Source: a virus
Reading direction: 5' to 3' (one strand)
Virus record (IMG/VR): IMGVR_UViG_3300008740_000003
Span: 25,497 to 89,496 of that record
DNA length: 64,000 bases
Position numbers and translations under genes: made by a program. Below are positions 1 to 50,716 of the stretch, in pieces. Position 1 is the stretch's first letter. The number at the start of each line of letters is the position of its first letter. The notes beneath the pieces are model-generated. The model made no database searches, was not told the DNA's origin, and saw nothing but the letters and a program-made list of their open reading frames with translations.

Positions 1-1
1 T

Positions 2-379
2 GTATCAGCATTTGGCTGTCACCCAAGTTGTCCTTGTCAATTCCACTGGCACAATCCGACACCGGCAGGAATGTTCAGTGAAAACGGAGCATATATCACT
101 TACAATACAGAAAATAATAATGGATTTTCACAATGGTCAGGTCACGGAGGTCACCAATTGGAAGCATCACTAGGTGCTGGAAGATTCCCAACTGGTGGAA
201 TACCTTGGGCAACTTGCTGGGGAGCAAGTAAGGCTTGTAACTGTTATGAAGCAGATCCATGTATACCACACGTTCCAGTAGGAATGGGAGGTCACGGACC
301 AATGCCTTGCGATGGAGTAAGAGATCACGCAAACAGAGGTGGCCATGGTGGAGTTAGAATTAAATGGATTACAGGATAG
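2..379 (+). CDS. Cys/Gly-rich putative receptor-binding protein, paralog 1 (5'-truncated by the window edge)
   Basis: Frame is open from nt 2 (VSAFGCHPSCPCQFHWHNPTPAG-M...). The C-terminus CWG..ACNCYE...PCDGVRDH..RGGHGGVRIKW matches the next two ORFs. Confidence 0.75.
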   Translation, partial: VSAFGCHPSCPCQFHWHNPTPAGMFSENGAYITYNTENNNGFSQWSGHGGHQLEASLGAGRFPTGGIPWATCWGASKACNCYEADPCIPHVPVGMGGHGPMPCDGVRDHANRGGHGGVRIKWITG

Positions 380-388
380 GATAAAATT

Positions 389-1396
389 ATGGCATCATTA
401 ACGACATTATTGCAAACAAAATATGATGGGATAGCGGCTGGAGAAACTAACCTGGAAAAAGGTACAATTTATACTTTTTATCCTTCCAACGATTATAACA
501 CAAACTTCCAATGTCACGTATGTTGGAAACCACCTGCAAACGGTACAGCACTTTTAGAAGTTTGGGGAGCGGCTGGATCAGGTGCAGAAATGTGTTGTTG
601 CGGTGGAGGAATACCAGGTAACCCAGGTGGTTATGCTAAAAAACAACTAGCGGCTTTTGGTGCAAGTTGGTCAGATTGTTTTGTTTGTTCAGTTATTGGT
701 TTATCATGCGGTAACTCAGATACTTTAAGTCACAGAGGACGTTCAGAACCAACTCAAGTTTGTTGGTTTGCCGGCGGAGCAGATGGATGTATTTGTTCTG
801 AAGGTGGTCAAGGAGGATGTTCTATTTGTTCTACTGGTAATGCATTATATTGTTGTTTTGTAGCACAAAATTATTGTCATACACAAGGTGGAAGCACTTA
901 TTGTGGAATAATTTGTAATTATAGAGATGATGGTGGAAACAGTTATGACGGTGCAGATTATTGTGCATTTGCTTATGGCGGAGATGTAAACTGTTATGGT
1001 GGATTTAGTTGTTATTACTTTAGAGGATGTCAACCAAACTGTAACTGTAGATATATTGCAGTAATTAAAGTTCCACCTGGAATGGTTTCAGAGTGCGGTG
1101 GAGAAGTTCAATACGCACACGATGAAGATAGTGAAAAAGTTTATCACTCAGGTTCAGGCGGAATTATGGGAGTTATGGAACCTCTTAATTTAATGACAAG
1201 AAGTCCTACACAAGGTTCACCTTACAACGCTTGTTGGACAGGTAATGACTCTTGCGGTTGTTATCAAGATCAAGGATGTATTCACTTCTTTCCAGGAGGA
1301 ATACCAGGACAAGGACCAACACCGTGCGATGGATATAGAGATCACGCATGGAGAGGTGGAAACGGAATATTAAGAATTAAGTTTATAGCTTCGTAA
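389..1396 (+). CDS. Cys/Gly-rich putative adhesin (Gly-rich tail-fibre tip-like), paralog 2
   Basis: W..P...EVWGAAGSG...G.PG..GGY.KK and terminal GG.G..RIKF scaffold of phage Gly-rich domains; ~30 Cys in 335 aa including CCC. Confidence 0.75.
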   Translation: MASLTTLLQTKYDGIAAGETNLEKGTIYTFYPSNDYNTNFQCHVCWKPPANGTALLEVWGAAGSGAEMCCCGGGIPGNPGGYAKKQLAAFGASWSDCFVCSVIGLSCGNSDTLSHRGRSEPTQVCWFAGGADGCICSEGGQGGCSICSTGNALYCCFVAQNYCHTQGGSTYCGIICNYRDDGGNSYDGADYCAFAYGGDVNCYGGFSCYYFRGCQPNCNCRYIAVIKVPPGMVSECGGEVQYAHDEDSEKVYHSGSGGIMGVMEPLNLMTRSPTQGSPYNACWTGNDSCGCYQDQGCIHFFPGGIPGQGPTPCDGYRDHAWRGGNGILRIKFIAS

Positions 1397-1414
1397 AAAG
1401 GAATAAATATTATT

Positions 1415-2386
1415 ATGGCAACATTAAAAAACATATTAACAACAAGACAACCGGCAAGTATGTCAGAAAATAACCTAGAAAAAGGTTACATTTATGCATA
1501 TTCTCCGGGTACTCAATTTGCTAATTTTTGTAATGGTGTTTGTTGGACAGCTATAGCAGATGGAAAAGCTATTGTAGAAATTTGGGGAGCTGGTGGATCT
1601 GGTTCTCGTATGTGTTGTTGCGGAGATGGATTACCAGGTAATGCAGGAGCATATTCTAAAAAAACAATTCAAGTAAATCAAGGTGATACAATTACAGCTA
1701 CTTTAGGAATGGCTTGTAGAGCTCACCCACTTTGTCACTCAGGATGTAGTGATTCAACTCAATTATGTTACATAACAACTACTGGAAGTGCAGATGGTTG
1801 TATGTGTGCAAGAGGTGGATATGGTGGAAAATCTATGTGTACAACTGGTACATCTTTCTATTGTTGTTACAGTGCAGAAGGTTTCTGTACTAATAGATGT
1901 AACAATGACAATTGTGGAATGACTTGTAACTGGTGTAATGGTGCATGGGAAGCCTTAGCATATGGTGGAGATATAAATTGTTGTGGACAAATAGGCTGTA
2001 CTAGTTGGTTCGGCTGTTGCCCTCACTGTAAATGTTTCTTCCAAAGACACGCTCCTATACCTTCAGGACTTTTTGCGGAAAATGGAGCATTAATTACGTT
2101 CCAAACAGAATCAGATGGAACACCTATGTCTAACTGGTCAGGTAACCAATTATTCCAATATTATGCGGCTCTTAATTTGGCTACTAAATCACCAAGACAA
2201 GGAAATCCAAGAGCTTATTGTTGGAGATCAGACAGATCTTGCGGTTGTTATGAATCACAAGGATGTGCTAATTTCTTACCAACAGGAGCAGGTGGACTAC
2301 CGCCAATGGCTTGTCCAGACGTTAGAGACCACGGAATACGTGGAGGACACGGAGGAGTTAGAATCAAGTTTATAGCTTCGGCATAA
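1415..2386 (+). CDS. Cys/Gly-rich putative adhesin, paralog 3
   Basis: Collinear with paralog 2 (NLEKG.IY, EIWGAGGSG..MCCCG, AYGGD.NC, SCGCY..QGC, RDH..RGG.G..RIKF); ~31 Cys in 323 aa. Confidence 0.75.
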   Translation: MATLKNILTTRQPASMSENNLEKGYIYAYSPGTQFANFCNGVCWTAIADGKAIVEIWGAGGSGSRMCCCGDGLPGNAGAYSKKTIQVNQGDTITATLGMACRAHPLCHSGCSDSTQLCYITTTGSADGCMCARGGYGGKSMCTTGTSFYCCYSAEGFCTNRCNNDNCGMTCNWCNGAWEALAYGGDINCCGQIGCTSWFGCCPHCKCFFQRHAPIPSGLFAENGALITFQTESDGTPMSNWSGNQLFQYYAALNLATKSPRQGNPRAYCWRSDRSCGCYESQGCANFLPTGAGGLPPMACPDVRDHGIRGGHGGVRIKFIASA

Positions 2387-2432
2387 TAATTGCAGGAGTA
2401 GGATAAATAGTTAAAACAAAGGAACAAAAATT

Positions 2433-3086
2433 ATGATAACAAAAGCGTTTAACATTGAGATGCCAAATAAACCATACGTGGACAACTTTTCAGATAATAC
2501 TGTCCATGCTTCAGAATATGTTGGATTTAAATACGTTAAAGTAATAGTAGATGCAAATGATTGGGTAGTAAATGTAACTTCTGAAGCTGATTCAATGGCC
2601 GAATTAAACGAACAAGCATCTCCAGTTCCAGCAGGTTGCAGTGCAGTTGTAATTGACGCTACAGCAAATCCTTTTGAAGCGGCTTTTATTACAGGAGATT
2701 ATACAACTGGTGCAGTTGCGGCTTATGAAGAATCATTAGGAACAAATGATGATGACGGAAATCCAGAAACTTGGTCATATACTTGGCAAGAAAATAGCCT
2801 TTTAGCTCAAATTTACTTACACGGTACAATGAAATATACAGCTGGTTCTTTTGTTAAACCTCAAATGAGAACACACGCATTAACTAGACAAATGTTCTTA
2901 GATTCTTTAGGACCATTAGCTGATGGTTTACAAGCTAATCTTGATGCAGATACGGCAGATCCTAAATATACAGCGGCACAAAGACAAGCAGTTGTAGATC
3001 ACAAAGCATACGTAGATAATATTCCTACAAAATACGCGGCAGTTGACCATTGGAAGATTCCTTTCAAACCAATGCCTCAAGTGTAA
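2433..3086 (+). CDS. Hypothetical protein, possible fibre assembly/chaperone or adhesin attachment subunit
   Basis: Acidic 217-aa ORF directly after the paralogs; C-terminal helix followed by IP..Y....WKIPF.P.P loosely resembles fibre-assembly protein tails. Confidence 0.45.
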   Translation: MITKAFNIEMPNKPYVDNFSDNTVHASEYVGFKYVKVIVDANDWVVNVTSEADSMAELNEQASPVPAGCSAVVIDATANPFEAAFITGDYTTGAVAAYEESLGTNDDDGNPETWSYTWQENSLLAQIYLHGTMKYTAGSFVKPQMRTHALTRQMFLDSLGPLADGLQANLDADTADPKYTAAQRQAVVDHKAYVDNIPTKYAAVDHWKIPFKPMPQV

Positions 3087-3119
3087 TAATTTAATACTTC
3101 TAATCACATTTCAAGAATT

Positions 3120-3164
3120 TTAGGTTACACTATTCGTACCTAATAAGTAATAGTGTTAATCTAA
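3120..3164 (+). promoter_or_regulatory. Stem-loop or pseudoknot enclosing an ATAAGTA late-promoter-like box just upstream of ATG 3167
   Basis: ACACTATT 3127-3134 pairs with AATAGTGT 3149-3156. TTAGGT 3120-3125 can pair with ACCTAA 3138-3143 or with the AATCTAA arm 3158-3164. Confidence 0.45.
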
Positions 3165-3166
3165 TT

Positions 3167-4144
3167 ATGACTGAAAATAATCCAATATCTAGACCAAAAG
3201 CATTTTTTTTAAATGGGGGAATGGGCAGAATAATTTGTGCCATCCCTGCCCTTGAAAAATACTATAATGAATCTAACGATAAAGATTTTATTATAGTAAT
3301 AGAAGGTATCCAAAATATCTTAGATGGTCATCCAACATTAGATTCTAAAACATTTGACTATGGTCATAAAAATTTATTCCACACTAAACTTGTAAAAATG
3401 GATGTGATAAGTTTAGAGCCATATAGAGTATGGGAATACTATAATCAAAAATGTAATATAACTCAAGCATTTGATATTTTAATTAATAACAAAGGCGTTA
3501 GAGAATTATCAGCACCTACAATTAATCTAAGTCAAGAAGAATTACTTGCAGGGAAAAAAGCAGTTAAAGAAATTAAAGATAAACTTAAAAAAGAAAAAGT
3601 AATTGTTTTACAACCTTTTGGACGAGGCATTCAACAAATAGATAATAGTTTTGTAGATAAAACTTGTCGAAGTATGGAATTTAAAAATCTAAAAAGTATA
3701 ATAAGAAAATTACAAGCACAAGATTATGCAATTATATTAATGGCAGAATTTGGAATTGAATTAAAAGGTGAGAAATATCCAGATGAAGTAGCAATGCCTG
3801 AAGGAATTGATTTAAGAAAATGGTTAGCAATTATAAAAAATTGTGATCATTTTTTAGGTTGTGATAGTGTAGGTCAACATTTAGCCTATATAGGTGGAAC
3901 AGAAGCAACAGTAATAATTGGTGCAACGTTCCCAGTTAATACATCATATCCTAAAACAAAAGGAATTAATATTATAGATATGGGACAAATAGATAGAGAA
4001 TATGATCCAATAAGAATAACAAACGATGAACAAGTTAGTAGACATAATGAAAAATTAATGTGGATGTCTGATGAAGTAGAAGATTATGTTGTAAATGTAA
4101 TATTAGGAAAACAAAAAACTGACGAGGAAGAACTAAATGAATAA
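3167..4144 (+). CDS. GT-B fold glycosyltransferase, GT9/heptosyltransferase-like, paralog A
   Basis: N-terminal GGMGRIICAIPAL (cf. the GT9 lGD...p.l motif), QPFG, and C-terminal IKNCDHFLGCDSVGQHLA (GT9 DSG..HlA box). Confidence 0.7.
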   Translation: MTENNPISRPKAFFLNGGMGRIICAIPALEKYYNESNDKDFIIVIEGIQNILDGHPTLDSKTFDYGHKNLFHTKLVKMDVISLEPYRVWEYYNQKCNITQAFDILINNKGVRELSAPTINLSQEELLAGKKAVKEIKDKLKKEKVIVLQPFGRGIQQIDNSFVDKTCRSMEFKNLKSIIRKLQAQDYAIILMAEFGIELKGEKYPDEVAMPEGIDLRKWLAIIKNCDHFLGCDSVGQHLAYIGGTEATVIIGATFPVNTSYPKTKGINIIDMGQIDREYDPIRITNDEQVSRHNEKLMWMSDEVEDYVVNVILGKQKTDEEELNE

Positions 4145-5948
4145 ATCAGGTTATATTGCGGCAATAGCCAGAGGACATAATGCAGGAATATGTTTATTAA
4201 AAGATGGAGAAATTGTTTTTGCAATAGAAGAAGAAAGATTATCTAGACACAAATACGATGGTGGTCCTTATCGTTCAATGATGGAAGTATTAAAATATAC
4301 TGACAAAATAGATTATTTAATTGTAGCTCATACACAACCATTAGATGATCCTACTACTGGTAAAGTAGATTATACTCATGATGATGTATATACAGGAATA
4401 GCAAGAAAATTAGGTTTAATAGATAGAAAAGCAAATTTAAAACAACACCCACAAGTAATTGACCTAAGTCATATTCATCATAAGTTACACGCCGGTTGTG
4501 CTTTTTATAGATCAGGATTTGATAAAGCCTGTTCGGTTATTGTTGATGGAGCAGGAACTTTTATGCCTGTTAATAATCAACTTACAGGAGATTTATGGAT
4601 GTTTGAAATAGAATCTATTTTTGATTGTTCATATCCTAATAATATAACAACTGTATGGAAACACTACGGTACTGGTTCTGCGTCTCCTGGAGCACATATG
4701 ACAAAAATGGATTCATCTAAAATGGGAGAACCTGGTAAAACTCATGAATGTTTATTTTCAGATGTAGCAGGAATTGTTAAAGTTTATGAAGCAGTTACTC
4801 AATACTGTGGATTCTCAGCCATTGAAGCAGGAAAAACAATGGGATTATTTCCTTATGGAAAACCTAATGATAGAATTCCTCCATTATTTCATAATGAAAT
4901 AAAATATATGTCTTTATCTAATAGACATTTAATAATTCCTACATATCCTAATGCGGCAATAGTAAATGAAGGCATTTATGATTATTTAGATGAAACACCT
5001 ACAGACAATCCTGATGTTACTAAACTACCTAATAGAAGAGATTTAGCCTATGCTTGTCAAACAGAAACTCAAGCAGAAGTTTTAAAATTAATTTATAAAG
5101 CTGTAGAAATGACAGGTCAAAAAAATGTTGTATTATCTGGTGGATATGGATTAAATTGTGTAGCAAATTATTGGTATCTTGAGTCTTTAAGAAAAGATGG
5201 AATTAATTTATTTGTTGAACCAGTATCAAATGACGCCGGAACAGCCATTGGAGCGGCTCTTTTATTTTATTATGGTATGTCAGAAGATATGACAAAAAGA
5301 CCACTTACTACATTATGTCAAGGTCCAGAAAGAAAATATACATTAGAAGAAATAGAAAAATTAGCAAATAAACCTGGTGTTGAATTGATGGACGCAAACG
5401 ATAAAGATGTAGTTAAATTAATGATAGAAAAAAATATTGTTTCAATGTTTCAAGGAAAATCAGAAAGTGGTCCAAGAGCATTAGGTAACAGAAGTATTTT
5501 ATTTGATCCTTCATTTAAAGATGGTAAAGATTTTGTTAATATAGTTAAACGAAGAGAATATTTTAGACCATTTGCAGGATCTATATTACATGAACACGTA
5601 CACGAATGGTTTGATTTAAGAGGAATGGAAGAAAGTCCTTATATGATGTATGCTGTAAATTGTCAAGAAGGAATAGCAGAAAAAATTCCTAGTATTATAC
5701 ACGTAGATGGTACTTGTAGAATACAAACAGTTAAAGAAGAACAAAATCCATTGTATTATAAATTAATTAAAGAGTTTTATAATCAAACAAAAATACCAAT
5801 TGTGTTTAATACGTCATTTAATTTAGCTGGAGAACCACTTGTAGAAACATTAGAAGACGCTATATGGACTCTTGAACAATCTCTTTTAGAATATTTGTAT
5901 CTTCCAGAATATGGAAAAATGATAAAGGTAAAAAATGTTAAGAAATAG
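4137..5948 (+). CDS. Full-length O-carbamoyltransferase (NodU/CmcH/TobZ family)
   Basis: EEERLSRHK, HHKLHA, VDGAG, GKTMGL, SGGYGLNCVAN, DAGTAIGAA, ESGPRALGNRSIL, KRREYFRPFA, HVDGTCRIQTV, NTSFNLAGEPLV. Confidence 0.95.
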   Translation: MNKSGYIAAIARGHNAGICLLKDGEIVFAIEEERLSRHKYDGGPYRSMMEVLKYTDKIDYLIVAHTQPLDDPTTGKVDYTHDDVYTGIARKLGLIDRKANLKQHPQVIDLSHIHHKLHAGCAFYRSGFDKACSVIVDGAGTFMPVNNQLTGDLWMFEIESIFDCSYPNNITTVWKHYGTGSASPGAHMTKMDSSKMGEPGKTHECLFSDVAGIVKVYEAVTQYCGFSAIEAGKTMGLFPYGKPNDRIPPLFHNEIKYMSLSNRHLIIPTYPNAAIVNEGIYDYLDETPTDNPDVTKLPNRRDLAYACQTETQAEVLKLIYKAVEMTGQKNVVLSGGYGLNCVANYWYLESLRKDGINLFVEPVSNDAGTAIGAALLFYYGMSEDMTKRPLTTLCQGPERKYTLEEIEKLANKPGVELMDANDKDVVKLMIEKNIVSMFQGKSESGPRALGNRSILFDPSFKDGKDFVNIVKRREYFRPFAGSILHEHVHEWFDLRGMEESPYMMYAVNCQEGIAEKIPSIIHVDGTCRIQTVKEEQNPLYYKLIKEFYNQTKIPIVFNTSFNLAGEPLVETLEDAIWTLEQSLLEYLYLPEYGKMIKVKNVKK

Positions 5949-6882
5949 TGCTATCTTTTTAAATGGCGGTGCTGGAAGAATGATTAGTTCCATACCTGCA
6001 TTAGAAAATTTTGAAAAAGAAAATCCTAATGATGATTTTGTAATAATTTGTGAAGGTGGAACTGATGTTTTAAAAGGTCATCCAACATTATATTATAAAA
6101 CATATGACAATTGGCATAAAGGACTTTTTAAAGAATTAATAAAAGATAGAAATTGTATTAATCCTGAACCATATAGAGTATGGGAATACTATACTCAAAA
6201 ATGTAGTCTTGCTCAAGCATATGATATTGCAATTAATAATAAAGGTATAAGAGAATTACAAAAACCTACAATAAGATTAAGCAAAGATGAACTATTATAT
6301 GCTCGAAAAATGTTAACTGAAGTAAAAGAAAAATGCAAAAAAGATAAAATAATTGTTATTCAACCCTTTGGAAGAGGTGTTAGAAAAGAAGATAAAGATG
6401 TAGTTGACATTACCGGCAGAAGTATGGAAACTAAAAATCTTTATAATATAGTAAGAAAGTTATCTAAAAAATATGCTGTAATGATTATGACAGAAACACC
6501 ATTAGAATTTAATAAGCATATGTCATCACCTGTAGCTACACCACAAAACGTACATATTAGAATATGGATGGCTGTAATTAGACAATGTGATCACTTTGTA
6601 GGATGTGACAGTGTAGGTGCACATATGGCTTATACTTTTGACACAACTACAACATCTATTATAGGATCTACATTTCCTATTAATACATCATTTCCAGATT
6701 ATGAAAAATTTGATGTCATTGATTTGGGCAAAGAAGACCGTGTTTATAGCCCTATAAGAATTACTGTAGATGAATTTTCAGACCGTATAAACGAGGGTAT
6801 TATGGAGATGAATGACCAACAAGAGCAACAAGTTATTGCATCTGTCAATAGAATGATAAAACACGGTAAAAATACCCGTTAA
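5935..6882 (+). CDS. GT9/heptosyltransferase-like glycosyltransferase, paralog B
   Basis: Collinear paralog of 3167-4144 (FLNGG.GR, GHPTL, EPYRVWEYY.QKC, QPFGRG, CDHF.GCDSVG.H.AY, PIRIT). Confidence 0.7.
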   Translation: MLRNSAIFLNGGAGRMISSIPALENFEKENPNDDFVIICEGGTDVLKGHPTLYYKTYDNWHKGLFKELIKDRNCINPEPYRVWEYYTQKCSLAQAYDIAINNKGIRELQKPTIRLSKDELLYARKMLTEVKEKCKKDKIIVIQPFGRGVRKEDKDVVDITGRSMETKNLYNIVRKLSKKYAVMIMTETPLEFNKHMSSPVATPQNVHIRIWMAVIRQCDHFVGCDSVGAHMAYTFDTTTTSIIGSTFPINTSFPDYEKFDVIDLGKEDRVYSPIRITVDEFSDRINEGIMEMNDQQEQQVIASVNRMIKHGKNTR

Positions 6883-6948
6883 GCCCAATATCTACTTAAA
6901 CTTTATCCTAATAAAATTGGTAAATACACTTAAAGAAGGAATCTTCAT

Positions 6949-7371
6949 ATGTTTGATGTGTCAAAACTATTTGGAAAAGGCGATAAAAATACGCTATTAA
7001 TGAAAAATGGGTTAAATTTTTCATATAATGGTCCGTATGCTACAGTTGTAGAAGGATTAATTTTAGACAGATTTCATGTTGGAACTTTTTGTTCTGCAGA
7101 ATATACAATATCTATAGACTATGATACTAATAATAAAGAAATTATTAGAGCACTAGTAGTAGGTAGCCCATCAAATAGTTCTGTAACAATTTACGGAAGA
7201 TCAAATTTAGGAAATGATTTAGTAAAATTAACTAGTACAGTTACTAATTCTTATGTAGAATTAAAACTAGATCCTGAACAAAAAACATCAACAACAAAAT
7301 ATGACGGTTCAAAAGCTATTTTCAAAGCAACATATTATCAAACAATGAATGCTTTGGTAGGTGGTGCATAA
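6949..7371 (+). CDS. Hypothetical virion protein (beta-rich)
   Basis: AAGGA SD and upstream TAAATA (6921-6926); located in the fibre region. Confidence 0.55.
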   Translation: MFDVSKLFGKGDKNTLLMKNGLNFSYNGPYATVVEGLILDRFHVGTFCSAEYTISIDYDTNNKEIIRALVVGSPSNSSVTIYGRSNLGNDLVKLTSTVTNSYVELKLDPEQKTSTTKYDGSKAIFKATYYQTMNALVGGA

Positions 7372-7412
7372 TATATGAAGTTATATTTTGATAAATATAG
7401 AGTATAAAGACT

Positions 7413-9269: not shown

Positions 9270-9272
9270 AAA

Positions 9273-9368
9273 ATGGCTTGCGAAAACGAAAAATGTAAAT
9301 GCGAAAATTGTACTTGTGATCCTTGTTTATGTACGGAAGACAAACAGTGTGAGTGTGCAAAGGAATAA
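9273..9368 (+). CDS. 31-aa metallothionein-like peptide (not in the ORF track)
   Basis: MACENEKCKCENCTCDPCLCTEDKQCECAKE*; 9 Cys, four CxC pairs; GGAG SD at 9261-9264; fills the gap between two genes. Confidence 0.75.
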   Translation: MACENEKCKCENCTCDPCLCTEDKQCECAKE

Positions 9369-9373
9369 TTTAA

Positions 9374-12300: not shown

Positions 12301-15300
12301 AGTAGGTGATGCAATAACAATTCTTGGAACGGCTTTAAGTGCATCAACACCAGCAAACGATTTAACAATTAATGTAGATAGTGTAGATACTGCAGGAGAA
12401 ATTCTTTCTTTCAGTTATTCAGGAACTGCATTTGACGGAACAGGATCAGTATCAAACGCAACTGGTAGTGTACCAGGTGGCGTAGGAACAGGCGGCACAT
12501 TTAATATTACTAAAACAGCTGGAACATATTCAGTAGCATTGGCAAGTAAAACATATACAGCTATAACTCCTGCATACGCAGGCGGTAATGGTGCTGGATC
12601 TATTTGGGACATAACAATATTGAATAATACTTTTAGTGCCGTTACAATGTCAAATGGTGGAACTGGTTTCATTGTTAATGATTCATTAAGATTTGCAGGA
12701 ACAGAATTTGGTGGAGTTGGAGATACTAATGAATTATTAATTAGAGTTACTGGTGAAAGTTCAGGAGTAATAACAGGTCATTCATCTGCAGGTACGGCTC
12801 CTGATGCAGTAGTAACATACTCAAACCCAGCATTTACTACAAGTGGTTCAGGAACATTAGCACAATTTAACGTAACAAGAACAGGTACAACTTATTCAGC
12901 AGTTATAACAGGATTAGGAACAAATTACGCACAAAATGATACTATAACAATTGATGGTGGTAATTTAGGTGGTGCATCAACAACAAATGATTGTACATTA
13001 ACAGTTGCAACTGTAGACGGTTCAGGTGGAATAACAAGTGTTACACCTACAGGTACAGCCGTAAACACACAATCCTGGACTGGATTAACATCAGCTAACA
13101 ACTATGTAGGTTCAGGAGCTCAATTTAGTGTTACTAACGCAGGCGGTGGTGGTAGCTATAGTAATGTTACAGTAACGTCAGTTGGAGAACATTATACATT
13201 AGGTCAAGAATTAAAAATATCAGGAACAACATTAGGAGGCTTATCTCCTACACACGATTTAACAATTACATTGGATACAGCATTAGGAGCCAATGACGCA
13301 ATTGTACAAGGTAATTGGACAGATAGTGGTAATGCTTTACCAGGACCTGAATCAATGGCTTATGTAGTAAATGATATATTAGAAGTTTCTGGTTCGGCTT
13401 TGGGCGGAGTTAATACGACCAATGATGCATACGTTAGAGTGTCTAGCGTAGACGCAGACGGGTCTATTACAGGATTAGCTGTTAGTGGAACAGGAACTGA
13501 TGGAGACGTAACATATACGGAAATACCAGAATGGGATGGTTCAACGATACCAGGATGGACTACAAACCAATCAGGTACAGGTGCAACATTTACAATTCAA
13601 AGAGTAGGAACAGCTTATACAGCCACAGTAGTAGCGATAGGATCAGGATTTGTAGGAACAGAACAAATAACAATTTTAGGAACACACTTAGGTGGTGCAA
13701 CACCTGGCAATGACGCTTCATTTACTATTTCAACAGTTGACGGATCAGGTGGTATTACAGCCATTAGTGCAGTAACAGGAACCGCGGCTAATACTCAAAC
13801 ATATACAAATGCACCTACATCAAAAAGAATAGGTCAAGGTGAAGCATTTGATATTAGTATTTCAGGTGGAAATTATACTGTAGATGCAATTGCACAGGCA
13901 GGTACAAATTTCTGGGTAGGACAAATAGTTAAAATTTCTGGATCAACATTATATGGTGCTTCACCAGGAAATGATTTATCATTAGAAATTACATCAATAG
14001 ATGCAGTATCAACAGGCGGAATAACAGGCGTAACTGCTACTGGAAGTGCTAACACAGGTACTGGTGCTGTAGGAACATTAATAGGTGGAAGTAATAGACC
14101 ACAGGCTGGTGTTGGAGCAGTATTCTACATAACTAGATCATATACAAATGATTCATCAACTACATATACAGAAGCAACAGTTTCATCTTTAGGAACAGGT
14201 TATAATGTAGGAGATCAAATTGTAGTTTCCGGTTCAAGTTTAGGTGGAGGAACACCTACGCATGATTGCAGTATTACTGTTCAAGCTGTAAATTCATTTG
14301 GTGGTATAACACAATGTACTCATTCAGGTAGTGCAGTAACAGGAACAGGTGTATCAGTTTATTCATCTATTACTTTATCAGATGCAACTACACAAGTTTT
14401 ACCTTCTTCATCTACAATAACTTATAGTGCGATAGCAACAATACAAGTACAATTTTTAACACCACACGGTTTAGTTCCAGGAGATGGTTTCTTAGTAACT
14501 ATTGGATCTGATAATGGAAGTAATAATCATTTATTAGCATCAGGACCATTCCTTGTTACAGAACTTCCAGCAACTAATCAATTAAGATTCCAAGCTAGAG
14601 CTCCAGGACAAATTACGGATCAGGATTGGTCTGGATTCGTATATGTTAGACCAGATTCATTCTTCGTACATAGACCATTTGATGGAGGTGTACAATTAGG
14701 AACAGGTGGACCACAACATGGTGCACAGGCGATAAGACAATCTAAAAAATATATTAGATATCAATCAGGTAAAGGTATAATGTATACAACGGGTGCCTTG
14801 TTTGCTCCTTCTTATGATATTTTAAATATTGTAGCAGAAGGTAAAACACTTGGTTCAGTTATATCAGTTACTACAGATGAAGTTGATCACGGTTTACAAG
14901 TTGGTGCAATTATAACATTAATTGGAATAGCACAACAAGAATTTAATGATGATTATACAGTAACTCAAATAGTAAATGAAAGAACATTTAAAGTTACTGC
15001 TCAAAGTACTTTAAGTATGTTAACTCCAGAATTTAAAGATCAACCACAAGTATCATTAAAAAATTGGAATGGTGCAACTGTAAGATCAGGTATATTTGAT
15101 GATCAAAATGGAATTTTCTGGGAATATGATGGTGTAAACTTAAATCTTGTACAAAGAACAGCTACAAGACAATTAGCAGGAACAATTTCAGTAAATCCTG
15201 ATTCTAATACAATTGCAGGAACAGGAACAAGATTTAGAGAACAATTAAAAGCAGGTGATAGAATAGTAATAAGAGGTATGACTCACGTTGTATCTAGTGT

Positions 15301-17092
15301 TACGGATAATGTAACAATGAATGTTACTCCAGACTATAGAGGAGTTAATGCTTCATCTGGTGTTAAAAGTTGTTTAGTATTTGATAAAAAAGTTAAACAA
15401 GCTAACTGGAATTTAGATAGAGTAGACGGAACAGGAGCTAGTGGATATGATTTAAATGTATCTAAGATGCAGATGATCGGTTTACAAATGTCCTGGTATG
15501 GAGCAGGATTTATTGACTATATGACTAGAGGTGGTGATGGTAACTTTATTTTCTGTCACAGAATGAGAAATTCTAACATCAATACAGAAGCATATATGAG
15601 AACAGGTAACCAACCTGTACGTTATGAAGTTACAAATGAAGGTCCTAATGGTAAACTTTCAGATAATTTAACTGCAGGAGATACAACAATAAGATTAATA
15701 GATGCTTCTTTCTTCCCACCAGGTGGCGGAACACTTTATATAGATAATGAAATTATAACATACACAACTGTTACTGGTAATAAATTAACAGGTGTTACTA
15801 GAGCAACTCAATTAACTAACTTTTCTGCAGGAGCTACTAGATCATATACAGCAGGTCCGGCGGCTGAACACTTTAGAAATACAGGAGTTGTATTAATTAG
15901 TAACTCAGCAAGTCCAATTATATCACACTGGGGATCATCTTACATAACAGATGGTGACTTTGATGAAGAACGTGGATATCTGTTTAGTTACTCAGCAACG
16001 AATTTAGAATTATCAACTACGAAAAAAACTGTGTTCCTAATAAGATTAGCACCATCAGTTGCTAACGCTTTAACAGGAGACCTTGGAGATAGAGACTTGC
16101 TTAACAGAGCCCAGTTGCTACTTGAAGGTATAGAAATTACAACTGAACCTGAAGCTACTAATCCAGGTTCACTAGTTGTACAAGGGGTTATTAATCCTCA
16201 AAACTATCCAATTGATCCAAGTGATATAGGTTGGACGGGACTGTCAGGAACTGCACAAGGTGGTCAACCATCATTTGCTCAAATAGCGGCAGGTGGTTCG
16301 GTTAACTGGAACGGTGGTGCAACTCAGGTTACAGCAACAGCAGACACATCGGCGGCAATTTCAACTCAAGTTACAAACAACTGGTGGAACATGGGTACTT
16401 GGTATAACAATTATTCATACTGGTTAAAAGAAGATGGTCCAGGAAACAACAATGGTTTTGATGACAGAAATATTAAAGTGGGAGATTCAGTAAGTGGTGG
16501 TAGTTTCCCTGCAAATACAATTATTACAGAGCTTTATGAATATTCTTATTACTACCTAGCATACTACAGTAATAATCACGGTGGTATTCCAATGGGAACA
16601 CCTATTACGTTTTCTATGGGAGGTACATTAACTAATACAAACTACTTGTACATGGATCCAACTTCATGGGAAGCTTCAAATGCCACACAAGGTACAGAAT
16701 TAGAAGACGCTAATTTTCCAGCTGGTACATCAGTTATTAGTGTGGATCCAATAGCAAGATATGGTCCAGTTAGTGGTGGTACAAATTATTACAAAGTAAC
16801 GTTTTCACAAACGTCTACCGGGGCTATTGCCGCAGGTGCAAGTGTTACGTTCTTATTTGGTAATCCACCATATGCACAACCAGGTGAAACGATCTTTTCA
16901 TTCGTTGCACAGCCAGGTGAAAGAGCAACATTATCTCTTCATCCGATCAAGGAATTGACTAATACTACATTAGGTGGAAGAGGAACATTTCCTAATGGTC
17001 CAGATGCGTTAGCAATTAACGTATACAGAACATCAGGTGCTGGAGCAGTTAACGGTACAGTTACACTGCGTTGGTCAGAAGCTCAAGCGTAA
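9374..17092 (+). CDS. Giant (2572 aa) repeat-rich virion fibre/structural protein
   Basis: T/G/S-rich; KCxRD...D.RY.GN helical motifs, duplicated YTP.TG...TFTC..DN...H.YPR modules, eight LGG..P.ND repeats, PHGL..GD modules. Confidence 0.85.
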   Translation: MAKKKLKNYIFQTGIPKSGNNYPIAHNLISKNVDWIKDEMMGYILEKTNLHTKADIYPNTSNRITNNRTFIKDEVWAWVAAQVAGNVAPFAGFTKTEDTIEADVEKVVDAIARDVRYGGNENLRTQTGTYFIDGVLQLANSGDPEIAYWTYMRTLIKDYILPGSAFSSLQTSTSYTPTGATYTPATGDMILTIGAHTLTVGQSVRISTLGLTFTCAKDNNATNHSYPRASGSNAPGGADYFYNKPVKITAKDSMSITINVGVSSNTSAHTFVSASSGSVQSGTIQDLTGTNAESAGVTDYDTKLGQLINTVDNGYLQLPALISSSYKFENFTYNTDKCNRDYQFILDAYLNDLRYNGNKQTRFIASKFWVGTTPQIDGDRQPEIAATNWVRDLITNYVLANRSVNFTPTNAVYTPTTGVMTLTIGTHPITVGQYIRINTNSLTFTCAMDNHGSNHTYPRATGSNAPGGADYAYNEPVLVTGISADSITVNVGISSNTTAHTFVSATTGAVTRSKQSPVVTTQFTDGTLSESNAASRIVTLSNIIADVKEFGLDNLPTLEKNEVSSLKVVNPGGQVNHEDILLITNTTRNTVLYNFADASLGCTVEYEKEEDDDFKAFLQGSDTVTTIFLNADTSTHSLTDAVSIFIEGGELKTRPFDFGTDAIERFRIAKPQSMIDADFEYGLQPTKWQAIATQRGYPSIYEVPGTDVDIASVTTDASTGTAGIGASLITVTTVGPHSMLAGDPLTIIGFAGSGVEGAGRAQGSFVVNAITSNKIFNYYAKAKVGTSNAQVISTKFTQMRKGAFYTGADLGEPTFSVVTQGSSGSVATSLKVLSGQTIVPFTGTAPPTGAPVAGTGIATGTQITAITGSGGAIVSPKIKGDYASGVTQVEVVDAAGILQNSVMDRGDGFGTNIINVNGMVLTLSSPLQSSLIGDQTVYQNVAGLNRSPNGSGATWNVSWTGGTYTVAISVTGLNYQVGDAITILGTALSASTPANDLTINVDSVDTAGEILSFSYSGTAFDGTGSVSNATGSVPGGVGTGGTFNITKTAGTYSVALASKTYTAITPAYAGGNGAGSIWDITILNNTFSAVTMSNGGTGFIVNDSLRFAGTEFGGVGDTNELLIRVTGESSGVITGHSSAGTAPDAVVTYSNPAFTTSGSGTLAQFNVTRTGTTYSAVITGLGTNYAQNDTITIDGGNLGGASTTNDCTLTVATVDGSGGITSVTPTGTAVNTQSWTGLTSANNYVGSGAQFSVTNAGGGGSYSNVTVTSVGEHYTLGQELKISGTTLGGLSPTHDLTITLDTALGANDAIVQGNWTDSGNALPGPESMAYVVNDILEVSGSALGGVNTTNDAYVRVSSVDADGSITGLAVSGTGTDGDVTYTEIPEWDGSTIPGWTTNQSGTGATFTIQRVGTAYTATVVAIGSGFVGTEQITILGTHLGGATPGNDASFTISTVDGSGGITAISAVTGTAANTQTYTNAPTSKRIGQGEAFDISISGGNYTVDAIAQAGTNFWVGQIVKISGSTLYGASPGNDLSLEITSIDAVSTGGITGVTATGSANTGTGAVGTLIGGSNRPQAGVGAVFYITRSYTNDSSTTYTEATVSSLGTGYNVGDQIVVSGSSLGGGTPTHDCSITVQAVNSFGGITQCTHSGSAVTGTGVSVYSSITLSDATTQVLPSSSTITYSAIATIQVQFLTPHGLVPGDGFLVTIGSDNGSNNHLLASGPFLVTELPATNQLRFQARAPGQITDQDWSGFVYVRPDSFFVHRPFDGGVQLGTGGPQHGAQAIRQSKKYIRYQSGKGIMYTTGALFAPSYDILNIVAEGKTLGSVISVTTDEVDHGLQVGAIITLIGIAQQEFNDDYTVTQIVNERTFKVTAQSTLSMLTPEFKDQPQVSLKNWNGATVRSGIFDDQNGIFWEYDGVNLNLVQRTATRQLAGTISVNPDSNTIAGTGTRFREQLKAGDRIVIRGMTHVVSSVTDNVTMNVTPDYRGVNASSGVKSCLVFDKKVKQANWNLDRVDGTGASGYDLNVSKMQMIGLQMSWYGAGFIDYMTRGGDGNFIFCHRMRNSNINTEAYMRTGNQPVRYEVTNEGPNGKLSDNLTAGDTTIRLIDASFFPPGGGTLYIDNEIITYTTVTGNKLTGVTRATQLTNFSAGATRSYTAGPAAEHFRNTGVVLISNSASPIISHWGSSYITDGDFDEERGYLFSYSATNLELSTTKKTVFLIRLAPSVANALTGDLGDRDLLNRAQLLLEGIEITTEPEATNPGSLVVQGVINPQNYPIDPSDIGWTGLSGTAQGGQPSFAQIAAGGSVNWNGGATQVTATADTSAAISTQVTNNWWNMGTWYNNYSYWLKEDGPGNNNGFDDRNIKVGDSVSGGSFPANTIITELYEYSYYYLAYYSNNHGGIPMGTPITFSMGGTLTNTNYLYMDPTSWEASNATQGTELEDANFPAGTSVISVDPIARYGPVSGGTNYYKVTFSQTSTGAIAAGASVTFLFGNPPYAQPGETIFSFVAQPGERATLSLHPIKELTNTTLGGRGTFPNGPDALAINVYRTSGAGAVNGTVTLRWSEAQA
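9896..10903 (+). repeat. Two ~105-aa intragenic modules (starting ~9896 and ~10589)
   Basis: YTPTGATYTPATGDMILTIGAH...TFTCAKDNNATNHSYPRASGSNAPGGADY versus FTPTNAVYTPTTGVMTLTIGTH...TFTCAMDNHGSNHTYPRATGSNAPGGADY. Confidence 0.85.
12215..14345 (+). repeat. Eight degenerate ~85-90-aa beta-module repeats
   Basis: Recurrent G..Y..GD.I.I.G..LGG..P.ND..I.V..V...G.I; coordinates approximate. Confidence 0.8.
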
Positions 17093-17482
17093 TTATTTCT
17101 TTTCAGGATTGTCTTTTTTGGATTGGCTATCGCCTTTTATAACTCTATAATTATCTTCAGAATGATCAGGTGTACTAACTTCGGATACGCTACCATGATC
17201 AGATACTAATTCTAATTGATGAGGCATTAATGGTGGATTGTACCAAGTTTCACCTTCTTTAAATTCTTTAGTATATAAGGTTGCATCTTTAGTATCAATC
17301 CAATGTAATTTGAATACTCCACTATTACAAAACCAAGTTTCATCTTTGTCTTTATGAAAATGCATACTAAATTTTGCACCTTTTTTAGTAAAGACCATAA
17401 TTTTTCCACAGTATTTGTCGCTGGATGCCCATATTAATTCATAGCCCCAACCCATTTCTCTTTTACCTAGTTTATTGATCAT
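17093..17482 (-). CDS. Cupin (sugar isomerase/epimerase-like)
   Basis: GWGYELIW..YCGKI, FSMHFHKDKDETW, PPLMPHQL, EVST cupin metal motifs. Confidence 0.8.
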   Translation of the reverse strand: MINKLGKREMGWGYELIWASSDKYCGKIMVFTKKGAKFSMHFHKDKDETWFCNSGVFKLHWIDTKDATLYTKEFKEGETWYNPPLMPHQLELVSDHGSVSEVSTPDHSEDNYRVIKGDSQSKKDNPEKK

Positions 17483-18293
17483 CGATAAATTCCTTAACTG
17501 TTTTCCAATTAATGTCTATATGTTTATTTAATTTTGTTAAATCGGCGCAAGTATAAGTTTGATATTGTTTGCTTAAATTTATTGGCATAGGTATTGTTTC
17601 TAATTTGGCATTGTATTTTTCAGCAATAATTTTAGCTATTCTTAAAAAACTAGTAGACTTACCAGTACCTACATTAAAAATACCACTTGTATCTGTTGTT
17701 AACATTTGTTCATGTACTTTACATATATCACTTACACAAACAAAATCTCTCATATAATTTTCACTATTTTCAAAAACTTTAATTACTTTATTTTCTTTAG
17801 CTTGTTTTGTAAATTTAGTTATAGGTGACGCTTGATCTTTTTTATCTTCTTCATGAGGACCATACACATTAAAATATCTAAATCCTTGAACAAGAATTTG
17901 AAATCCATCTTTATCTACAGATTCTACAAAACGATCAAAGAAATATTTGCTCCATGCATAAGCATTCATAGGATAAACAGGACCTTCTTCATTAAAATTT
18001 CCTGTAGTTCCATATACACTAGCAGAGCTGGCGTATTGAAAATTTGTTCCCATAGTATCACATAATTGTAACAACCTCATACTAAAGTCATAATTTTGTT
18101 TCATTATTTTGTTTACATTTGTTTCAGTAGTTTTAGAAATTGCTCCTAAATGAATTATCCAATCATATTTTGATGGATCTGGGAAAGAATTTTCTATATA
18201 ATCATAACCTTCTACAGTATGTCCTTTAGTTTGTAAATATGCAAACAAATTACGTCCTATAAATCCTTTATATCCTGTTATTAAAATATTCAT
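17472..18293 (-). CDS. hldD: ADP-L-glycero-D-manno-heptose 6-epimerase-like SDR
   Basis: ITGYKGFIG, HLGAIS.TTE, YASSASVYG, P.NAYAWSK, GFRYFNVYGPHE, YQTYTCADLTKL; start moved to MNILITG (18293). Confidence 0.85.
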   Translation of the reverse strand: MNILITGYKGFIGRNLFAYLQTKGHTVEGYDYIENSFPDPSKYDWIIHLGAISKTTETNVNKIMKQNYDFSMRLLQLCDTMGTNFQYASSASVYGTTGNFNEEGPVYPMNAYAWSKYFFDRFVESVDKDGFQILVQGFRYFNVYGPHEEDKKDQASPITKFTKQAKENKVIKVFENSENYMRDFVCVSDICKVHEQMLTTDTSGIFNVGTGKSTSFLRIAKIIAEKYNAKLETIPMPINLSKQYQTYTCADLTKLNKHIDINWKTVKEFIDDQ

Positions 18294-18892
18294 TAGTATC
18301 CGTCTGTTTGCCAATCTCTAGTTAATTTACATATTTCTTCTGGTATAGACAAATAAGAATATTTGCTATCTGGAATTGGCACAAAATTAATATTAATTGC
18401 TATTCTAACTTTTTCATCTGTACAAGTAGAACCTGAATGATTTAGATAGCTAGGAAAAATAACCATTGAATTTGCAACACTAGGTATTTGTACACCATTT
18501 TTAAATTCAGTATATCCATTATTAGTATTAACATAAAATATTGCTGTAAGTGAGCAAGGATGAATAGTATCTATATGGTATCCGTGAACAACTACTTTAT
18601 CGGCTTTTGGAATAAGATTAGCTTTAATTCTAACAAAGTTTATTGGATCTAAAACTGCAAAAATTGGCATTAAAATTTCCCAATTTTCTCCTTGTGTAAC
18701 AATTTTACTAAATTCTTGAAATTGATGTACAAATTGTTGTTGATATTCTGATGTACCTGGTTTTGCCATAGCATCTCCTACAACATAATCATAATAGTAC
18801 CAAGGAAAACTTTTATCCATTATTCTATTTCTTAATTTTTCAAAATCTTCAGTACTTAATACATCATTAACAGTTATAATTTTATCTTTCAT
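18293..18892 (-). CDS. 2OG-Fe(II) oxygenase
   Basis: HxD (YHID), TAIFYVNTNNG.T.F, distal H (NHSG), R...N.N (VRIAININF). Confidence 0.8.
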   Translation of the reverse strand: MKDKIITVNDVLSTEDFEKLRNRIMDKSFPWYYYDYVVGDAMAKPGTSEYQQQFVHQFQEFSKIVTQGENWEILMPIFAVLDPINFVRIKANLIPKADKVVVHGYHIDTIHPCSLTAIFYVNTNNGYTEFKNGVQIPSVANSMVIFPSYLNHSGSTCTDEKVRIAININFVPIPDSKYSYLSIPEEICKLTRDWQTDGY

Positions 18893-20123
18893 TTTTAATT
18901 TTCTCTATTATATCACTTGTAGAATGTCCTTCTATTCTTGAAAAAATTTTGACGTCTGCAAGTTCATTTCCTATTACTGTTTCTACAGTCCAATCACCGC
19001 CTTTTACTATAATATCTGGCATAATTTCTTTCATAAGATTGTGTGGATTATCTTCTTCAAAAACTTTAACTTCATCTACCCACGGTAACATCATTAATTG
19101 TTTAACTCTTTTATCAACATCATTAATAGGTCTATCAGGACCTTTTATTTTTTTAACACTAGCATCACTATTAATTCCAACAATTAATTTTTTACCTAAA
19201 CTTTTTGCATATTTTAATAATTCTAAATGACCTATATGTAAAATATCAAATACTCCATTAGTAAAAATAACTCCTTTTTGTAAATCATTTAAAGTAACAG
19301 GAACAACACCACGTTGTTCTACATTTCTAGCTGATGCCATACACGCTAATTTACAACATTCAAATACATTAATATCTTTGGATATACCATAAGCTAATAC
19401 ACTTAAAAATGTATCTCCTGCACCTGTGACGTCAGCAACATCTTTTGCTTTTTCTTTTAATAATTGATATTCACCTGTAGTAGATAATACATGAGCACCA
19501 TTACTACCATCTGTAACTATTAACCATGTCCATTGATGATCTCGCATAAATTTAAGAGCATCACTAATTGAAAATACACCATTCCATTCTTTGTATTCTT
19601 TCATATTTGGTTTAACAATATAAGCTCCATCATAGGTATCTGCACTTTGTTTTGGATCAACTATTACATATTTTGTTTTTTCTAATAATTTAGATATTGT
19701 ATCTTTTTTAATAACACCTTTATTATAATCACTAACAATTACTATATCATTTTCTTTACAGTCAACAATAATTTCATTAGAATAATTTTCTTCTTTATCT
19801 AATCTTAATACGTGTTTACCACCTTGACCTATTATTCTAGTTTTAGTAGTTGTAACAGAATGATCATAATTTAATTTAGGATGTATTTCTTGTGTCAAAA
19901 ATAATTTTATTAATTTTTTACCTGAGTCATCTTGTCCTACTGCACCATATAATTCACAAAATATTTTTAAATTTGCAATATTAACTGCAACATTTCCAGC
20001 ACCACCTATACTATATCTTTTATTTTGTTCTTTTAAAACTAATACAGGTCCTTCAGGTGAAACTCTATTAGCTTGACCTTCTACCCATACATCTAGCATA
20101 ATATCACCAATTATTTTAATCAT
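18882..20123 (-). CDS. hldE: Bifunctional heptose-7-P kinase / heptose-1-P adenylyltransferase
   Basis: IGDIMLD, RVSPEGPV, GGAGNVA.N, SDYNKG, DVTGAGDT (PfkB domain) plus FTNGVFDILHIGH, GINSDASV..KG..RPIN, VKGGD, GHSTS. Confidence 0.92.
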   Translation of the reverse strand: MIKIIGDIMLDVWVEGQANRVSPEGPVLVLKEQNKRYSIGGAGNVAVNIANLKIFCELYGAVGQDDSGKKLIKLFLTQEIHPKLNYDHSVTTTKTRIIGQGGKHVLRLDKEENYSNEIIVDCKENDIVIVSDYNKGVIKKDTISKLLEKTKYVIVDPKQSADTYDGAYIVKPNMKEYKEWNGVFSISDALKFMRDHQWTWLIVTDGSNGAHVLSTTGEYQLLKEKAKDVADVTGAGDTFLSVLAYGISKDINVFECCKLACMASARNVEQRGVVPVTLNDLQKGVIFTNGVFDILHIGHLELLKYAKSLGKKLIVGINSDASVKKIKGPDRPINDVDKRVKQLMMLPWVDEVKVFEEDNPHNLMKEIMPDIIVKGGDWTVETVIGNELADVKIFSRIEGHSTSDIIEKIKNER

Positions 20124-20554
20124 GTTATAAATTTAACCATTTTAAAAACTGTTTCTAATTTTGTTTGATTAGTTTTATTTTGTAATGTTTTTCTTAATCC
20201 TTGATGCAAAGGCTTTGGCCATCTACCAAAAGACACCCACGAATATCCATCGTGTTCTTTGTTTAATTTAGGAATAAATTCATTTTTGACTAAACAGAGA
20301 TATGTATGATATAAGAAATTTTCATCATTACTGATAAAAGTTTCCATTGGAATAGTTTTAATAATTTTTTGGTCACCTATCTCTTCTTTAATTTCTCTTT
20401 TTAAACCTACCCACGCATTAGAATCAGTAGTAGTTGTACCACCAACTAAACCCCAAACATGGTTTTGTTTGCTTTGTGTTCTATGTAATAATAAAAAACG
20501 TTGGGTGTCTAAAGTATAGAAAAGTGCTCCGCAACCAATTATTCTCTGGGTCAT
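20120..20554 (-). CDS. Nudix hydrolase
   Basis: WGLVGG.....A..GLKREIKEEIG Nudix box; LN.EHDGY.W and P.PLH. Confidence 0.8.
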   Translation of the reverse strand: MTQRIIGCGALFYTLDTQRFLLLHRTQSKQNHVWGLVGGTTTTDSNAWVGLKREIKEEIGDQKIIKTIPMETFISNDENFLYHTYLCLVKNEFIPKLNKEHDGYSWVSFGRWPKPLHQGLRKTLQNKTNQTKLETVFKMVKFIT

Positions 20555-45462: not shown

Positions 45463-45489
45463 AATTGGTTAATAAATATTGGTAGTCCA

Positions 45490-47244: not shown

Positions 47245-47245
47245 T

Positions 47246-50709: not shown

Positions 50710-50716
50710 ATAAGGT

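Follow-up and report, generated by a model that had tools for sequence, protein, structure and literature searches.

Candidate enzymes for late carbamoyl-heptose decoration of phage fibre proteins in a marine jumbo-myovirus-like contig

In the last 64,000 nucleotides of the 89,496-base IMG/VR virus record IMGVR_UViG_3300008740_000003 (the window; the parent record is about 24% complete), overlapping genes for two predicted GT9-fold glycosyltransferases (GTs; gtA and gtB) and an O-carbamoyltransferase follow three genes for Cys/Gly-rich proteins and a partner gene, all among fibre genes, and a convergent unit encoding HldE- and HldD-like enzymes lies beyond a giant fibre gene. We consider it an even call that these genes serve the late decoration of a phage fibre protein with carbamoyl-heptose, with the Cys/Gly-rich fibre tips, or else the Ser/Thr-rich fibre proteins encoded next to them, as the most probable candidate acceptors. 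The arrangement had been described in an earlier sequence-only reading, and the open reading frames (ORFs) were laid out as claimed there, both in the plus-strand module, where the overlaps are 8 nt (gtA/carbamoyltransferase) and 14 nt (carbamoyltransferase/gtB), and in the minus-strand HldE/HldD unit, which converges on the gene for a 2572-aa protein. The plus-strand genes are the following.

1–379, plus strand: 3' part of Cys/Gly-rich paralog 1 (5'-open ORF at 2–379); the whole gene encodes 326 aa with 31 Cys
389–1396, plus strand: Cys/Gly-rich paralog 2, 335 aa, 30 Cys, resembling a glycine-rich-domain fibre tip (phrog_4205)
1415–2386, plus strand: Cys/Gly-rich paralog 3, 323 aa, 31 Cys; fold matches of its model include the fibre of Pam3, the tail tip of Bxb1 and the glycine-rich domain of ALK/LTK
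2433–3086, plus strand: partner protein (p217), 217 aa, in a family with S-CAM3 gp155, SSSM7_118 and PSSM2_305
3167–4144, plus strand: gtA, putative GT9-fold glycosyltransferase paralog A, 325 aa (phrog_8954)
4137–5948, plus strand: NodU/TobZ-type O-carbamoyltransferase, 603 aa, by Pfam domains and homology
5935–6882, plus strand: gtB, putative GT9-fold glycosyltransferase paralog B, 315 aa, by fold and donor motif
6949–7371, plus strand: 140-aa protein (p140), with a homologue after the enzyme cassette in 77 of 80 related loci
7413–9269, plus strand: 618-aa Ser/Thr-rich fibre-like protein (phrog_2576), an alternative acceptor candidate
9374–17092, plus strand: 2572-aa virion/fibre protein (phrog_5838), homologous to an S-CAM3 'virion structural protein' and an alternative acceptor candidate

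A pattern scan of IMG/VR recovered 587 confirmed relatives of the GT, and the locus counts given here refer to the best 80 of these 587. The carbamoyltransferase was present in 78 of the 80 loci, at most 2.1 kb from the GT in 77 and directly adjacent to it in 24; at least one Cys-rich ORF, recognized by profile or composition, was found in 70, and two GT copies, as in the window, in 17. Every locus with at least 7 kb on each side (46 of 46) contained at least two Cys-rich ORFs together with the carbamoyltransferase; the Cys-rich/GT/carbamoyltransferase linkage proposed from the window is thus conserved across relatives, and it is found in cultured cyanophages as well. The flanking structural blocks were inverted in about 10 loci, and the cassette still lay between the Cys-rich block and the block of p140, 618-aa and giant genes. 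In many relatives an extra ORF of 270–320 aa separates the GT and carbamoyltransferase genes; considered as a further GT9-like protein, it was not detectable as such, and it had no Pfam or PHROG match.

A phyletic survey of 50,697 phage records revealed that the GT, the Cys-rich family and the carbamoyltransferase subfamily (the 23 of 136 records with an identity of 45% or more) are shared by P-SSM2, P-SSM5, S-SSM7, S-SSM6a, S-CAM1, S-CAM3 and Sf-FS3, the matching carriers besides these seven cyanomyoviruses including single-cell virus contigs. The cyanomyovirus carriers keep the gene order of the window. Neither megablast of the region nor tblastn with paralog 3 of the window gave a match in the phage records, and cyanophage paralogs served as queries instead. 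Clustered at 90%, the GT family comprises 3,410 proteins, and at 50% it falls into 603 clusters; DNA near-identical to the region occurs in marine metagenomes of at least five studies. Distant GT homologues in phrog_8954 were also seen in 78-kb Vibrio phages (D505-type) and Aeromonas phage HJ05 (L087 7983–8720; L086 7992–8915), where they lie between giant tail/fibre proteins or just ahead of the tail sheath, with no carbamoyltransferase nearby.

The two GT paralogs are 51% identical, and both belong to phrog_8954, a PHROG without assigned function. The structural comparison with WaaC/WaaF and TibC was run on the AlphaFold2 model of gtB (predicted local distance difference test, pLDDT, 84.7; predicted template-modelling score, pTM, 0.87), and the nearest folds in the PDB by Foldseek were GT9 enzymes, with 3tov as the best match (E 4.9e-12, TMq 0.66), followed by WaaF (5.2e-9), WaaC (1.6e-8) and TibC (1.8e-8). 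The GT9-like assignment of the earlier reading held at the level of fold, but not by Pfam score, since the GT9 model (PF01075; cut-off 22 bits) gave gtB a score of 16.2 bits and had no match in gtA; the NCBIfam heptosyltransferase III model gave 19.4 bits against a cut-off of 170. Among divergent members of the family, 3 of 10 exceeded the Pfam GT9 cut-off, at 22.7–31.1 bits. Searches of PDB chains with the GT sequence or its profile gave no usable match, and identity to solved GT9 enzymes is about 11–13%. Comparison by hhalign paired gtB 205–250 with WaaF 249–294 (E 0.005), a segment of the C-terminal domain containing the donor-side motif D-S..G.H, of which D225, S226, G228 and H230 of gtB are invariant in 27 sequences. 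Many polar residues are likewise invariant across these 27 sequences and, together with the motif, in part across 25 divergent ones. We class the family as a distant branch of the GT9 fold that is carried by phages, a putative heptosyltransferase by model. It is the linkage to HldE and HldD, alone among the evidence, that suggests ADP-heptose as the donor.

A dedicated search, which is weak evidence, returned no fused GT forms longer than 552 aa. A profile search yielded one metagenomic protein of 558 aa (P0378) with a GT8 domain fused to a GT9-like domain of the gtB family, a hint that products of the family contain more than one sugar. Elsewhere in the window, a 259-aa ORF at 41703–42482 (plus strand) contains the GT9 donor motif and matches Pfam GT9 weakly (E 3.9e-4), its hhalign alignment to the gtB family covering the donor motif only; this ORF may encode a third heptosyltransferase-like protein.

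The carbamoyltransferase contains Carbam_trans_N at 93.9 bits and Carbam_trans_C at 195.9 bits, both over the Pfam threshold. Matches to solved members ranged from 1e-40 to 1e-55 (7xb6, E 6e-55; TobZ, 1e-44), and its solved homologues include TobZ, NovN and GdmN; the score against the NodU equivalog model was far below the cut-off (130 versus 1000 bits). The accessible text of PMC8670742 describes the mechanism of TobZ as proceeding via carbamoyl-adenylate.

The minus-strand unit would supply the donor sugar. It runs in the order 385-aa virion protein, gp15, NUDIX, hldE, 2-oxoglutarate (2OG) oxygenase, hldD, cupin, its genes overlapping, abutting or nearly touching, and comprises the following in the part nearest the giant gene.

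17093–17482, minus strand: cupin, 129 aa, found with hldE–hldD in the cassettes of 19 of 20 relatives and in cyanophages (T4-GC 307)
17472–18314, minus strand: HldD-like ADP-heptose 6-epimerase, 280 aa, by models and structures
18293–18892, minus strand: 2OG-Fe(II) oxygenase-like protein, by weak Pfam matches; its gene separates hldE from hldD in 6 of 20 relatives
18882–20123, minus strand: HldE-like bifunctional heptose-7-phosphate kinase/heptose-1-phosphate adenylyltransferase, 413 aa, two domains
20120–20554, minus strand: NUDIX hydrolase, a backbone gene adjoining gp15, by domain match and neighbourhood

In HldE, a PfkB kinase domain and a cytidylyltransferase-like domain are both present; the protein matched NF008454 with E 1e-95 and 321 bits, below the cut-off of 521, and the single-domain models were likewise under their cut-offs. 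HldD scored 235.6 bits against TIGR02197, just under the cut-off of 274.6, and its match to 1eq2 (E 1e-44) was far ahead of GalE-type matches, so that ADP-heptose 6-epimerase is its best match among the short-chain dehydrogenases/reductases (SDRs). The identities proposed earlier for both proteins were borne out by these domain, model and structure matches, and both genes lie with gp15 in a unit headed by a late-type box. HldE was present in 25 of 35 records (22 of 32 from IMG/VR and all three cyanophages), and 6 of the 10 records without it stop short of the expected place. At all 20 HldE sites (20 of 20), the unit of virion protein, gp15, (NUDIX), hldE, (2OG) and hldD converges on the giant gene. 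The NUDIX hydrolase probably stands outside the sugar pathway.

The three Cys/Gly-rich paralogs contain 31, 30 and 31 Cys (9–9.6%) and 14–17% Gly, and are 40–46% identical to one another. Paralog 1 is complete in the parent record (L005 12895–13875, equal to window positions −601 to 379), with its start 601 nt ahead of the window. The model of paralog 3, of moderate quality (pLDDT 70.7), gave fold matches to the fibre of cyanophage Pam3 (E 3.4e-5), the Bxb1 tail tip (2.5e-4) and ALK/LTK (about 5e-4), and 137 BFVD matches with E up to 1e-3, many of them labelled glycine-rich domain or tail fibre; as modelled, the Cys-rich proteins match a glycine-rich-domain (ALK/LTK-like) phage fibre-tip fold. 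Local profile iteration placed the partner protein with S-CAM3 gp155, SSSM7_118, PSSM2_305 and relatives of 310–476 aa, the latter with weak tail-assembly-chaperone matches. When the acceptor candidates were compared, the Cys-rich tips shared the phyletic pattern of the GT, whereas the 618-aa and giant proteins were richer in Ser+Thr (24% and 22%, against 12–15% in the Cys-rich proteins). The C-terminal third of the 618-aa protein is repetitive, with 28% Ser+Thr; of these two proteins, the giant one alone has a homologue among the carrier cyanophages.

Ahead of the Cys-rich genes, the plus strand of the parent record encodes huge fibre-like proteins of 1717 and 1923 aa and then small proteins of 105 and 110 aa. 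The 105-aa protein (L005 12110–12427) has homologues in S-CAM1, S-CAM3, P-SSM2 and P-SSM5, and one in Acidithiobacillus phage AcaML1 that bears a tail fibre-like annotation; no match was found in S-SSM7 or Sf-FS3. A weak match of the alpha/beta-hydrolase type (Pfam Chlorophyllase, E 0.008) falls in the middle part of the 618-aa protein, and a 31-codon ORF with nine Cys lies at 9273–9368 (plus strand), between the 618-aa and 2572-aa genes.

The timing of the module was addressed through the motif ATAAATA. The window contains 14 copies against 55.5 ± 7.6 expected, a four-fold depletion, and each of the 14 lies 12–44 nt upstream of the start of an ORF on the same strand, which fits the core of a T4-type late promoter as judged from the letters. 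Four boxes concern the genes discussed here.

1403–1409, plus strand: ATAAATA late-type box ahead of paralog 3 (motif scan)
2403–2409, plus strand: ATAAATA late-type box ahead of the partner gene, the closest such box upstream of the GT trio (motif scan)
7391–7397, plus strand: ATAAATA late-type box ahead of the 618-aa gene (motif scan)
23359–23365, minus strand: ATAAATA late-type box at the head of the minus-strand unit (motif scan)

Further boxes at 39485 and 45472 precede parts of a second sugar island at 39504–51000 (plus strand), which encodes two GT25 proteins, a GT8-like protein, four methyltransferases, an SDR epimerase, a cupin and several ORFs without assignment. This distribution suggests that the second island is expressed late, as are the module and the hldE unit. 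Contigs from RNA libraries (four runs from three studies) were compared with positions 1–20000. Run X18 gave 20 pieces, 17 of them with a likeness of at least 99%, and the pieces listed covered the giant gene, p217 and the Cys-rich genes; in the oligo-dT run X16, pieces 90–95% alike touched the gtA/carbamoyltransferase and gtB/p140 junctions, the carbamoyltransferase gene and hldE. Note that these contigs hold no strand, start or level information and may include DNA carry-over, and they leave timing and co-transcription unsettled.

The proteins at 20568–22028 (minus strand) and 34392–36470 (plus strand) resemble backbone proteins of the jumbo myoviruses Sinorhizobium Phosso, Agrobacterium Atu_ph07 and Pseudomonas PA5oct; gp15 and one virion protein match jumbo myoviruses only (Phosso, Atu_ph07, PA5oct-type), with no match to cyanophages at 1e-10. 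psbA was found neither in the parent record nor in five relatives of up to 268 kb, all incomplete records, and CheckV completeness of the relatives suggested a genome near 350 kb. These protein matches place the backbone with the jumbo myoviruses and not with the cyanophages. Since the module is common to cyanomyoviruses and sits here in a jumbo-myovirus backbone, it seems to have moved whole, as a unit, between distant myovirus lineages.

Taken together, the genes could form a mobile tail-fibre module that carries its own sugar-tailoring enzymes. Late in infection, the phage would transcribe the fibre-tip genes along with those for the chaperone-like partner, both GT9-fold transferases, the O-carbamoyltransferase and the large fibre proteins, while HldE and HldD would be produced from a second late unit headed by the virion protein and gp15. 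By homology, HldE and HldD would convert heptose phosphates to ADP-L,D-heptose, from which the GT9-fold transferases would place heptose onto a phage-made acceptor; the TobZ/NodU-type enzyme would then carbamoylate a sugar hydroxyl through carbamoyl-adenylate. The second GT paralog may add a second sugar or act on another site or paralog. The outcome would be a host-recognition apparatus decorated with carbamoyl-heptose.

We also put forward, tentatively and leaning against it rather than towards it, a broader version in which a phage-only GT9 branch heptosylates the Cys-rich tips before O-carbamoylation, as a portable 'glyco-receptor-binding' unit passed intact between marine jumbo myoviruses and cyanomyoviruses, which with the late-box sugar island at 39.5–51 kb would amount to a programme of virion glycosylation similar to the one in giant viruses. 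An unusual attachment chemistry, through Cys or a 2OG-hydroxylated residue, might apply in that version, because the catalytic Asp seems to be replaced by Arg and there is no invariant Ser/Thr, two points detailed next.

Several observations weigh against the predicted decoration of a fibre protein with carbamoyl-heptose. The 80 loci behind the linkage counts are close relatives, 53–100% identical to gtB, and are not independent. TibC ranked alongside WaaC and WaaF with similar E-values, and the fold match cannot separate LPS-type (lipopolysaccharide) from protein-type transferases. In a weak local alignment of gtB 13–42 with WaaC 11–40 (score 35), the invariant Arg15 stood opposite Asp13, the catalytic base of WaaC. 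On the acceptor side, no invariant Ser/Thr was present across 29 aligned sequences of the Cys-rich family, and with the low Ser+Thr content given above the idea that these adhesin-like proteins are Ser/Thr-rich was not upheld; glycine-rich-domain fibre proteins also exist in phages without this GT, for example Syn9 gp38. The 80-nt gap before gtA contains no ATAAATA, so that the trio would be expressed late only if transcription from the 2403 box ran on into it; between that box and gtA, no terminator-like site was reported. The late-type box claimed ahead of the fibre and GT genes was found as ATAAATA, including the copy at 2403, but the canonical TATAAATA occurs once in the window, at 25179 ahead of the tail-sheath gene.

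The supply of heptose is also uneven. HldE is absent from four long relatives (G024, G025, G027 and G028), which reach 80–223 kb or show an empty site; two of them are 165 and 223 kb long, and in two the gp15–NUDIX pair directly abuts the giant gene. The heptose cassette was thus found to be a presence/absence polymorphism at a fixed site. HldE parts conversely occur in cyanophages that lack this GT (S-SM2, P-TIM68 and S-T4), and the co-occurrence of hldE/hldD with the GT cassette, expected from the window, applies in part: these exceptions on both sides show that the heptose supply is a frequent but not obligate companion of the cassette. The cyanophage isomerase-like proteins, used to look for GmhA, matched nothing in the 89-kb record (about 24% complete), and no search was made for GmhB; an SIS_2 search (0 of 30) missed annotated cyanophage genes too and is uninformative. 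Of the original proposal of a carbamoyl-heptose decoration, the linkage, the GT9 fold and the HldE/HldD identities stood, whereas the Ser/Thr-rich nature of the Cys-rich candidate acceptors and full hldE/hldD co-occurrence did not.

Remodelling of the host envelope was weighed as an alternative that we regard as rather unlikely. Here the enzymes would build a carbamoyl-heptose core or oligosaccharide on host LPS, lipooligosaccharide (LOS) or another surface glycan, and so stop superinfection or re-adsorption of virions. WaaF and WaaC, among the structural neighbours of gtB, are LPS enzymes, 7-O-carbamoyl-heptose is a feature of the LPS core in Pseudomonas, and the GT25, GT8, methyltransferase, epimerase and cupin genes of the second island belong to typical LPS/LOS-type families. 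The role itself was proposed for cyanophage 'LPS genes' in the accessible text of Sullivan 2005. Nevertheless, the linkage is to fibre-tip genes, not to other sugar genes, and persists across lineage transfer; the late boxes on all sugar units would be late for a protective surface change; and the N-terminal acceptor domain of the GT is unlike that of LPS enzymes by sequence. [quoted passage not shown] Envelope remodelling is weakened because of these late boxes, the fibre linkage and the reported lack of heptose and Kdo.

It is more doubtful still that the product is neither protein- nor LPS-bound, such as a soluble or lipid-linked heptose glycoconjugate, or that the GT-like proteins are non-catalytic fibre assembly factors. 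The Arg at the presumed catalytic Asp position, the weak tail-assembly-chaperone matches of the partner family, the unexplained extra ORFs between the GT and carbamoyltransferase genes of relatives and the relatives without HldE would all suit such a role, but the invariant donor motif and polar residues argue for a probably active enzyme, and an intact two-domain carbamoyltransferase is always adjacent. Hypermodification of phage DNA, in which the carbamoyltransferase and GT-B-fold transferases would decorate hydroxymethyl-pyrimidines, is very improbable: a proven 5-hydroxymethylcytosine carbamoyltransferase falls within the phage NodU/TobZ family (PMC8670742, accessible text), other cyanophage carbamoyltransferase subfamilies (S-RIM44, Sf-FP1, Sf-CH3) adjoin thymidylate-synthase genes, a pairing tied in that text to 5-carbamoyloxymethylcytosine DNA, and a deoxynucleoside monophosphate kinase gene lies at 24211–24804, but the subfamily of the window sits in fibre genes, not nucleotide-metabolism genes, a thymidylate-synthase/hydroxymethylase homologue (PF00303) was found in 0 of 5 incomplete records, including relatives of 267 and 223 kb, and the carbamoyltransferase/hydroxymethylase pairing is described, within the same portion of the source, only in modified contigs.

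Should the putative carbamoyl-heptose enzymes act on the fibre tip, they would form the first system for protein heptosylation, and for carbamoyl-heptose, known in a virus, and provide the first case of glycosylated receptor-binding proteins in T4-like marine phages. It would bear on host range, on the stability of particles in seawater and on the role of the cyanophage 'LPS genes'. The cultured carriers P-SSM2, S-SSM7, S-CAM1, S-CAM3 and Sf-FS3 make the question directly testable, and the family is abundant.

Comparison with known systems showed that the earlier label of a new system was too strong, since homologous genes are the published cyanophage 'LPS genes'. The cyanomyovirus cluster T4-GC 302–308, with T4-GC 297–301 upstream, contains homologous genes in the same order as the window (P-SSM2 PSSM2_302–314; S-SSM7 SSSM7_114–134; S-CAM3 gp160–148), running from fibre, proteins of about 105 aa, Cys-rich paralogs and partner to GT, carbamoyltransferase, heptose kinase/adenylyltransferase, cupin and epimerase, with identities to the window of 40–50% for the GT and 47–63% for the carbamoyltransferase. 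The window differs from that cluster in that its carbamoyltransferase has a GT copy on either side, HldE is fused, the heptose genes sit behind the giant fibre gene within the gp15 unit, the backbone is of jumbo-myovirus type, without psbA, and no phosphoheptose-isomerase-like gene was found in the 89-kb record. The accessible portions of the published accounts (2005, 2010) treat the cyanophage genes as being of unknown function or possible 'stuffer' DNA, and draw no link there to the Cys-rich proteins.

Among cellular enzymes, protein heptosylation by TibC and AAH, which have an iron-binding Cys cluster and form a dodecamer, is known. These enzymes and the GT9 members WaaC and WaaF have the GT-B fold and the donor-side D-S-x-G-x-H motif in common with gtB; the GTs of the window differ in their identity of about 11–13%, a Pfam GT9 score under threshold and the Arg opposite WaaC Asp13 in the weak alignment. 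TobZ, NodU, NovN and GdmN share both Pfam domains with the carbamoyltransferase, which scores far below the NodU equivalog cut-off. The LPS inner core of Pseudomonas aeruginosa, with its 7-O-carbamoyl-heptose, is made by the same combination of GT9 heptosyltransferases and a NodU-family carbamoyltransferase acting on heptose; that system is cellular and lipid A-Kdo-linked, whereas the genes of the window are phage-borne and tied to fibre genes. Mycobacteriophages likewise encode glycosyltransferases that act on their own structural proteins (Freeman et al. 2023, cited in PMC12619734), although those glycans are on the capsid and tail-tube C-termini of actinophages, and the available part of PMC12619734 makes no mention of heptose, carbamoylation, a sugar-nucleotide pathway or a link to fibre tips. 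In the literature outside subscription journals, no heptosylated or carbamoylated phage virions and no link between a heptosyltransferase and a tail fibre were found. Compared with these systems, what is new in the window is the combination of enzymes and its tie to fibre tips, the genes themselves being already in print.

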